From positions 864,001-928,000 of the forward strand of contig CAWCNY010000003.1 of assembly GCA_963797095.1 (NCBI GenBank): a DNA stretch of 64,000 nucleotides. The letters are read 5' to 3'. Positions 32,839 to 32,963 of the stretch are shown here, piece by piece. Made by a program: the position numbers and the translations under genes. Source of the stretch: an uncultured Chloroflexia bacterium (GTDB lineage: Bacteria > Chloroflexota > Chloroflexia > QHBQ01 > JADMIH01). Every line of letters begins with the position of its first letter. Within the stretch, counting starts at the first letter, position 1. The notes beneath the pieces were generated by a model. The model searched no databases, was not told the DNA's origin, and saw nothing but the letters and a program-made list of their open reading frames with translations.

Positions 32839-32867
32839 TTGACAGGGGGATGGGCCGGTGCTACAAT
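32839..32867 (+). promoter_or_regulatory. Strong sigma70 promoter antisense to the rep leader
   Basis: TTGACA(32839-44)-N17-TACAAT(32862-67) with TG extension; no downstream + strand ORF. Confidence 0.8.
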
Positions 32868-32873
32868 GCGTTT

Positions 32874-32963
32874 GAGCCTACATTGTGCAGGTGCTCCTCC
32901 CACCAAGAGGGCCACCACTACAGAACCTTCAAGACCTGACTGTTACCAGCAGTCGGGTTTTTT
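32874..32963 (+). ncRNA. Candidate counter-transcribed RNA (ctRNA, ~90 nt)
   Basis: Promoter above; terminator GACCTGACTGT-loop-GCAGTCGGGTT+TTTT (32933-32963), whose G-U pairs form only on the + strand. Confidence 0.68.

Follow-up and report, generated by a model that had tools for sequence, protein, structure and literature searches.

The window analysed here, a 64,000-nt stretch of contig CAWCNY010000003.1 from an uncultured Chloroflexia bacterium, carries on its minus strand the gene for a putative replication initiator of 554 amino acids with two tandem winged-helix (HTH_36/DnaD_N-like) domains (31154-32818; Rep). Downstream of rep, on the same strand, lie genes for an HTH_17-ParA protein (29876-30976), a phage antirepressor-like P22_AR_N/ORF6C protein (28884-29870) and ParB (27676-28836). 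Just past parB, an IS66 transposase, a Uma2-family nuclease and a Phd-PIN toxin-antitoxin pair are encoded (24105-27494). On the other side of rep are an orphan Phd/YefM-like antitoxin gene (33486-33719, minus strand; Pfam E 3e-5, below the curated cutoff) with no adjoining toxin gene, and a gene for a 1370-aa protein (34019-38131, minus strand) with an ice-binding-like adhesive domain, a lipase-like region and Thr/Pro-rich repeats. The gene content of the window comprises sugar transporters, hydrolases and regulators; no tRNA was found in it, nor any core housekeeping or phage structural gene among the proteins scanned.

A scan of species-representative genomes, on which alone the range of the system and the frequency of its tandem form rest, yielded 37 related loci (given L numbers where they must be told apart), of which 36 have Chloroflexia, Chloroflexi or Chloroflexota in their titles and one is unclassified. 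Both parA and parB occur near rep in 28 of the 37 loci and parB alone in one, the other eight being mostly short or cut near rep. The parA-parB pair stands directly upstream of rep on the same strand in 16 loci; in the window, rep comes first. P22_AR_N/ORF6C-like genes near rep were also seen in L005, L016, L017, L036 and L037, and Phd-like genes in L001, L002, L010, L013, L015, L018 and L021. The only Pfam match of Rep is HTH_36, while its homologues also match DnaD_N and some of them a C-terminal DnaA_N, and its similarity to PHROG replication initiation and O-like families is weak (E 3e-8 to 2e-5). All homologues with a taxon in their name are Chloroflexia or Chloroflexota. No Rep_trans, PriCT_1, RepA_N or RepC Pfam match and no RP-C match in Pfam or NCBIfam was found, and the likeness to RepC of repABC replicons is that of a feature-level look-alike only (19% of one cluster).

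Iteron-like repeats with a 24-bp period lie inside rep (31597-31730) and form a candidate origin. The best repeat period is 24 or 48 in 29 of 31 full-length rep genes, with motifs that differ between paralogues, and the third codon positions of rep are conserved like the first and second (0.67 versus 0.60 and 0.65 in 14 genes), which suits DNA-level iterons, although a recent tandem duplication would look similar. The cumulative GC skew of the window has a broad minimum at about 17000-31000 and rises past rep, a course compatible with a nearby origin but no proof of one.

The linkage to parAB, the internal repeats and the initiator-like domains support the label 'rep', and suggest that the protein initiates replication of large secondary replicons. 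That the gene is something else, for instance a transcription factor or a prophage remnant, and that the RNA described below has no role in copy number, seems very improbable. Such a reading could draw on the lack of an NCBIfam family for Rep, on PDB matches confined to weak winged-helix hits (E 0.11-0.3), on plasmid tblastn matches that are partial, fall in the winged helix at no more than 39% identity and include no Chloroflexota among those listed (all 18, and the best 40 of 58), on the breadth of the skew minimum and on the adjacent antirepressor-like gene; it is opposed by the frequent parA-parB pairs, often directly upstream, by the DNA-level repeats, by the initiator PHROGs and by the lack of phage structural and core housekeeping genes among the proteins scanned.

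One cultured Chloroflexia member, which is not among the 37 loci, is described in PMC10972752 as having two chromosomes, a chromid and two plasmids. A Rep paralogue, P0087, is 40% identical to P0001 and is listed with a contig of equal length (1,147,721), so that one megabase contig may carry two rep loci. In the tree its nearest neighbour is L017, found in the same genome bin as L001, which is closely related to the window Rep.

A predicted antisense RNA gene over the rep leader

A plus-strand promoter (32839-32867) consists of TTGACA at 32839-32844, a 17-nt spacer and TACAAT at 32862-32867, its -35 box lying 8 nt from the rep Shine-Dalgarno sequence (SD). It matches the consensus at 11 of 12 positions and has an extended -10 (TG-n-TACAAT); the pattern of -35 box plus extended -10 occurs once in the window versus 0.01 expected. 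With its start placed by promoter spacing, the predicted counter-transcribed RNA (ctRNA) is about 90 nt long (32873-32963, plus strand) and ends in an intrinsic terminator (32931-32963) with a 14-pair stem (32931-32961) and a U-tract (32958-32963). An initial annotation of this DNA had named a near-consensus promoter and an intrinsic terminator on the plus strand with no ORF between them; both elements are where it placed them, and no plus-strand ORF of at least 60 aa overlaps the RNA. The predicted architecture is an open 5' tail, a middle hairpin and the terminator hairpin, with a folding z of -2.56 (two hairpins), and the complement of the terminator forms the core of the first hairpin of the rep mRNA.

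The same annotation read the RNA as counter-transcribed over the rep leader and made this reading depend on conservation of the promoter and terminator upstream of rep orthologues, and such conservation is what we find. In 29 of the 37 loci, as in the window, a promoter that matches 11 of 12 positions and has the TG lies at a distance of 20-25 nt from the rep start. Across 1.04 Mb (both strands, loci plus window) there are 63 promoters matching at least 11 of 12 positions, 30 of them at the rep-leader position and 33 elsewhere. The set of 30 leaders used below does not include L019 and L025 (contig ends), L026 (promoter absent in 552 nt) or L012, L014, L022, L028 and L035 (unaligned, the -35 box lying 100-276 nt away from the start codon that was chosen); the last five have variant leaders, and a different hairpin follows in the four with a scored promoter. 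Covariation was counted in 22 of the 30 leaders, after removal of two near-duplicates and six with another terminator type. In these aligned sequences 98.6% of cells in the terminator stem are paired and two-sided changes occur at 5 of 10 pairs; none of 500 shuffles matched the real stem in cells paired and covariation score. By these comparisons of promoter and terminator, the existence and conservation of a ctRNA antisense to the leader of this putative initiator gene are well supported.

No Rfam family matched at its gathering score in the window or in the 12 of 37 loci scanned. At E values up to 10, sar scored 21 bits against a cutoff of 43, a likeness confined to the terminator hairpin, and was rejected. 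BLASTN of both cassettes of the window (the second is described below) against plasmid and phage collections returned zero matches. The antisense RNAs of five rep cassettes in one genome bin are 52-74% identical, and within-bin identities span 42-74% (23 pairs), figures to be read with the caution that bins may be contaminated. At L021:3833 the cassette is intact and the ORF from the start codon ends after two codons, owing to either a frameshifted rep or an assembly error.

Predicted alternative folds of the rep leader

On the minus strand, the rep ATG at 32818 is preceded by the SD AGGAGG (32826-32831). The leader is predicted to form, directly before the start codon, an attenuator terminator (32819-32852, minus strand; the OFF structure), in which a hairpin (32852-32823) is followed by a run of four U. 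The SD lies in its 3' arm, and sequence complementary to the antisense -35 box is part of its 5' arm and loop. This hairpin with its U-run, which the initial annotation did not contain, has a predicted energy of -13.8 kcal/mol and z = -1.70 in the window.

Leader structure was tested in 18 non-redundant leaders (identity <85%). Cognate arms of the OFF hairpin beat swapped arms in 15 of 18 (p = 7e-4). A U-run of at least four in the spacer between SD and start is present in 15 of 18 leaders (26 of 30 overall) compared with 1 of 148 further genes of this DNA that have an SD (Fisher p = 1.6e-17); it is missing in L027, L036 and L037 among the 18, and four of the 30 leaders lack a four-U run. The end of the OFF stem lies 0-1 nt from the U-run in 16 of 18 leaders. 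This abutment, together with the enrichment of U-runs, amounts to terminator geometry, and by its sequence the rep leader looks like a pT181-type attenuator.

Two mutually exclusive leader folds are predicted. A 16-nt inverted repeat joins 32835-32850 with 32895-32910, and a pre-emptor, or anti-terminator (32895-32910, minus strand), would pair with 32850-32835 to form the long stem of the ON fold, thereby removing the OFF 5' arm. The minus-strand GGAGG (32896-32900) and the complementary CCTCTTG/CAAGAGG segments (32835-32841 and 32904-32910) reported in the initial annotation are present and fall within this repeat. When the antisense-covered region was blocked, the mean number of OFF pairs rose from 2.8 to 8.3, with a gain of more than 2 bp in 15 of 18 leaders. 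Because blocking removes the competitor by design, a shuffle test was added: in 17 of 18 cases the real leader suppressed OFF more than leaders in which the antisense-covered region was shuffled (p = 1.5e-5), the shuffling restoring the OFF hairpin. The pre-emptor pairing itself has no cognate preference (10 of 18, p = 0.28), so that the pre-emptor is conserved by sequence and not by proven covariation. RNAalifold on the 30 whole leaders gave only 4 consensus pairs, a probable cause being that the leader has more than one fold and that the anti-SD register shifts from one lineage to the next; arm-swapping tests were used in place of consensus folding.

All of these folds are equilibrium predictions that ignore co-transcriptional kinetics. 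In the window the predicted switch is modest, with 5.4 OFF pairs in the free versus 9.0 in the bound state and an SD unpaired at 0.30 versus 0.17; no fold within 2.5 kcal/mol opens the SD core. Five of the 30 leaders have no predicted switch: in L020, L021, L029 and L033 the OFF fold is predicted whether or not the RNA is present, and L027 has no OFF hairpin.

Farther upstream in the mRNA, the first hairpin (32911-32980, minus strand) is the likely antisense target. The 5' arm of its outer stem (about 32967-32980) lies beyond the antisense RNA, which makes it probable that the target is contained in the mRNA in full. Cognate arms of the outer stem beat swapped ones in 14 of 14 leaders, and 13 of these 14 favour the mRNA strand (four divergent leaders of the 18 were left out); in the window the outer stem is weak (-7.9 versus -6.8 shuffled). 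UGGY motifs occur around the target loop in 15 of 18 leaders, around the pre-emptor in 16 and around the ON apical loop in 11, as counted in loose windows with no control. YUNR motifs are described as aiding antisense pairing (PMC4737173), and UGGY/YUNR motifs may serve the pairing of ctRNA and leader at this locus. Alignment of the regions upstream of rep revealed no local rep promoter. On the mRNA strand, GGAG occurs 60-90 nt upstream of the antisense terminator (window about 33008-33043) in 13 of 18 leaders versus 2-7 in other bins, possibly marking an operator, a protein-binding site or part of the rep promoter.

Models of control and their known counterparts

We consider it likely that the ~90-nt cis-encoded antisense RNA controls rep by antisense-driven attenuation with occlusion of the ribosome-binding site (RBS), the output most likely being transcription termination at the SD-containing hairpin, of the pT181/pIP501 type, rather than simple RBS blocking. 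The ctRNA is delimited by a strong promoter and a terminator. Without it, the pre-emptor is predicted, with support from conservation, to pair with the -35-box complement and the anti-SD arm, so that the terminator would be blocked and rep transcribed. The ctRNA would bind the leader, probably through UGGY-type loops first, and mask the pre-emptor; the SD hairpin before the U-run is then predicted, in line with its conservation, to end transcription ahead of the start codon, and it would also occlude the RBS on read-through message. By analogy with known systems, the level of ctRNA would follow copy number and provide negative feedback, while divergent sequences would permit several such replicons to coexist; the ctRNA may accordingly be expected to govern both copy number and incompatibility.

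Other modes of control have to be set against this one. Regulation of the pSK41 type, in which the antisense-induced hairpin only hides the RBS and transcription goes on, would fit the position of the SD in the hairpin 3' arm of nearly all leaders, the way in which pSK41 RNAI (~83 nt) is described to work (PMC5703833), and the shortness of the U-runs, mostly 4-6 nt and 4 in the window. We nevertheless hold it to be unlikely, given that U-runs are nearly absent from other SD-ATG spacers and abut the stem, that the second cassette keeps its hairpin and U-run without a conserved ORF behind them, and that the predicted opening of the SD in the ON state is small. Transcriptional interference by a convergent promoter, or decay of the duplex by RNase III, would make by-products of the alternative folds. 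The near-consensus promoter does face a rep promoter that could not be located, and the partner of the pre-emptor is pinned by the -35 box and shows no cognate preference; the U-run, the co-adapted SD hairpin, the mRNA-only outer stem and the suppression of OFF beyond that of shuffles are all left unexplained, which makes this account improbable.

Coupling of rep to a leader peptide is known from IncFII tap and IncI repY. Here the RNA would block translation of an ORF farther upstream, on which the opening of the rep RBS would depend, and the initial annotation had pointed to a GGAGG followed by a start-stop ATG-TAG (32900-32878). The ATG-TAG is indeed present (32883-32878), but it does not appear meaningful, as only 1 of the 30 leaders has a start-stop at -65 and the two closest relatives have out-of-frame ORFs of 50 and 77 codons at this position. 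An SD-preceded start codon lies at -64 to -73 in 10 of the 30 leaders and 20 have none, the ORFs vary in frame and length, and no conserved upstream ORF coupled to rep in the manner of tap or repY was found among the 30. We therefore reject a minigene or leader peptide, an explanation that we find scarcely credible, and regard the upstream GGAGG as most likely belonging to the pre-emptor and not serving as a minigene RBS.

Attenuation as preferred here has its closest counterpart in the Staphylococcus plasmid pT181, for which PMC5703833 and PMC5435934 describe an 87-nt RNAI that induces an SD-containing terminator before repC, a pre-emptor otherwise preventing that terminator. The two have in common an antisense RNA of ~87-90 nt over the rep leader (here predicted from promoter and terminator), an SD-containing terminator-like hairpin just before the start codon, and an upstream pre-emptor pairing with its 5' arm. 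Unlike pT181, the present system has no Rfam match, resides in a Chloroflexia host, and has a tandem winged-helix Rep with internal repeats and parAB in place of a rolling-circle initiator of the Rep_trans type. The antisense -35 box inside the terminator hairpin, where it is part of the pre-emptor's partner, is a further difference, stated from the side of this locus alone, and the tandem second cassette is another. Given the lack of an Rfam match and a Rep that has no relationship with RepC of pT181, the system would work like pT181 without being a member of its family.

RNAIII of pIP501 and Inc18 plasmids is described as inducing a terminator before rep in a theta replicon (PMC5703833), and the terminator proposed here would be induced in a similar way. 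In that description the leader measures ~320 nt in the staphylococcal relatives, rep is accompanied by a CopR repressor and encodes a PriCT_1 Rep, and the origin follows rep; at the present locus the switch measures ~160 nt, no cop gene was seen, the nearest upstream gene is Phd-like and the repeats lie inside rep. The RNAI of the RepA_N plasmid pSK41, according to the same source, hides the RBS only, without transcription attenuation, and the origin lies inside rep (PMC5703833). An SD-sequestering hairpin, an antisense RNA of similar length and a candidate origin inside rep are shared with this plasmid as so described; the conserved U-run after the hairpin and the lack of a RepA_N match are not. 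In the repABC replicons of Alphaproteobacteria, a ctRNA of 55-59 nt between repB and repC is described as an incompatibility factor (PMC10194956). The order parA-parB-ctRNA-rep in 16 of 37 loci recalls these replicons, as do the large replicons, several per cell; the ~90-nt RNA, the lack of a RepC-family initiator match and the variable gene order, with rep first in the window, set the present loci apart from that description. As neither RNA homology nor the Rep family fits, the system stands outside both the pT181 and repABC groups, though its arrangement is often repABC-like.

A second cassette in tandem

A profile search revealed a second, diverged cassette, located upstream of the main one, in the window (33096-33210, wider bounds 33096-33262; nhmmer E 2.4e-12) and in L001, L002, L015 and L018, and a Phd-like gene lies upstream in all five of these loci. 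The window copy has an antisense promoter (33114-33143, plus strand), from which a second antisense RNA is predicted to start at about 33149, and a minus-strand hairpin with U-run (about 33124-33096; z = -3.81) that is not followed by a conserved ORF. This copy shares 82-84% identity with its counterparts in L001 and L002, compared with 34-50% in the spacers and 72% in the phd-like gene, and an identity so far above that of the spacers indicates that the second cassette is under selection. Behind the second cassette of L015 lies a 67-codon ORF with a rep-like start, and in L018 a similar sequence without a start codon; in view of these remnants, the second cassette was probably once the leader before a rep gene that has since disappeared. 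Second cassettes of the window, L001 and L002 are 48-55% identical to those of L015 and L018, which suggests that such a cassette was captured twice, but the Rep tree, available in a quick version only, also allows a single origin of the tandem arrangement. Predicted switching is mixed, depending on the chosen 5' end in the window, L001 and L002, and giving OFF regardless in L015 and L018.

Cross-talk between the two cassettes of the window found no support, their identity being 47% and their duplex scoring at the median of non-cognate RNAs. The second cassette of L018 (L018:9212-9367) shares 71% identity with the main cassette of L010, from the same genome bin, and their duplex is predicted at -101 versus a median of -76 kcal/mol, though the RNAs of L029 and L030 score better; cross-talk between the L010 and L018 replicons is possible on this evidence.

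The region before the phd-like gene (about 33768-33861, minus strand) contains promoter-like sites, is 83-85% identical in L001 and L002, and is a candidate start of the rep transcript. Beside this promoter, the direct repeat ATCTCCAAC occurs at 33791-33799 and 33815-33823, with 24-bp spacing, and is conserved in L001 and L002; it is possibly an operator. A transcript from the phd-like promoter might cross both attenuators (33096-33210 and 32819-32980) and form a two-input RNA gate, with Rep made only when both RNAs are low, a speculative and rather doubtful idea. The second cassette may let the replicon sense another replicon family, or repress it in trans, and so couple copy numbers. Engineered tandem pT181 attenuators are described as computing NOR (PMC4033574), and the arrangement here resembles that synthetic gate in having two sequence-distinct antisense attenuators on possibly one transcript, in this case a natural one.

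An abstract-level literature search found no paper on the ctRNA or the Rep family, although large surveys of ncRNAs or plasmids may list the motif. What is new here is the Chloroflexia host, the -35 box embedded in the switch, the presence of up to five diverged cassettes per bin and the conserved tandem cassette. Antisense-driven attenuation of replication is described for pT181 and Inc18 plasmids (PMC5703833, PMC5435934); if the proposed mechanism is true, it extends to an uncharacterised initiator family and to large Chloroflexia replicons. Orthogonal attenuators of the pT181 type are sought in synthetic biology, as described in PMC3753616, and the loci offer some 30 natural attenuators that are compact and diverged, among which the tandem pair would mirror the engineered NOR gate. 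The cassette provides a sequence marker for secondary replicons in the mostly uncultured Chloroflexia, and the five rep loci in one bin, with their diverged antisense RNAs, offer a testable account of how such replicons coexist.
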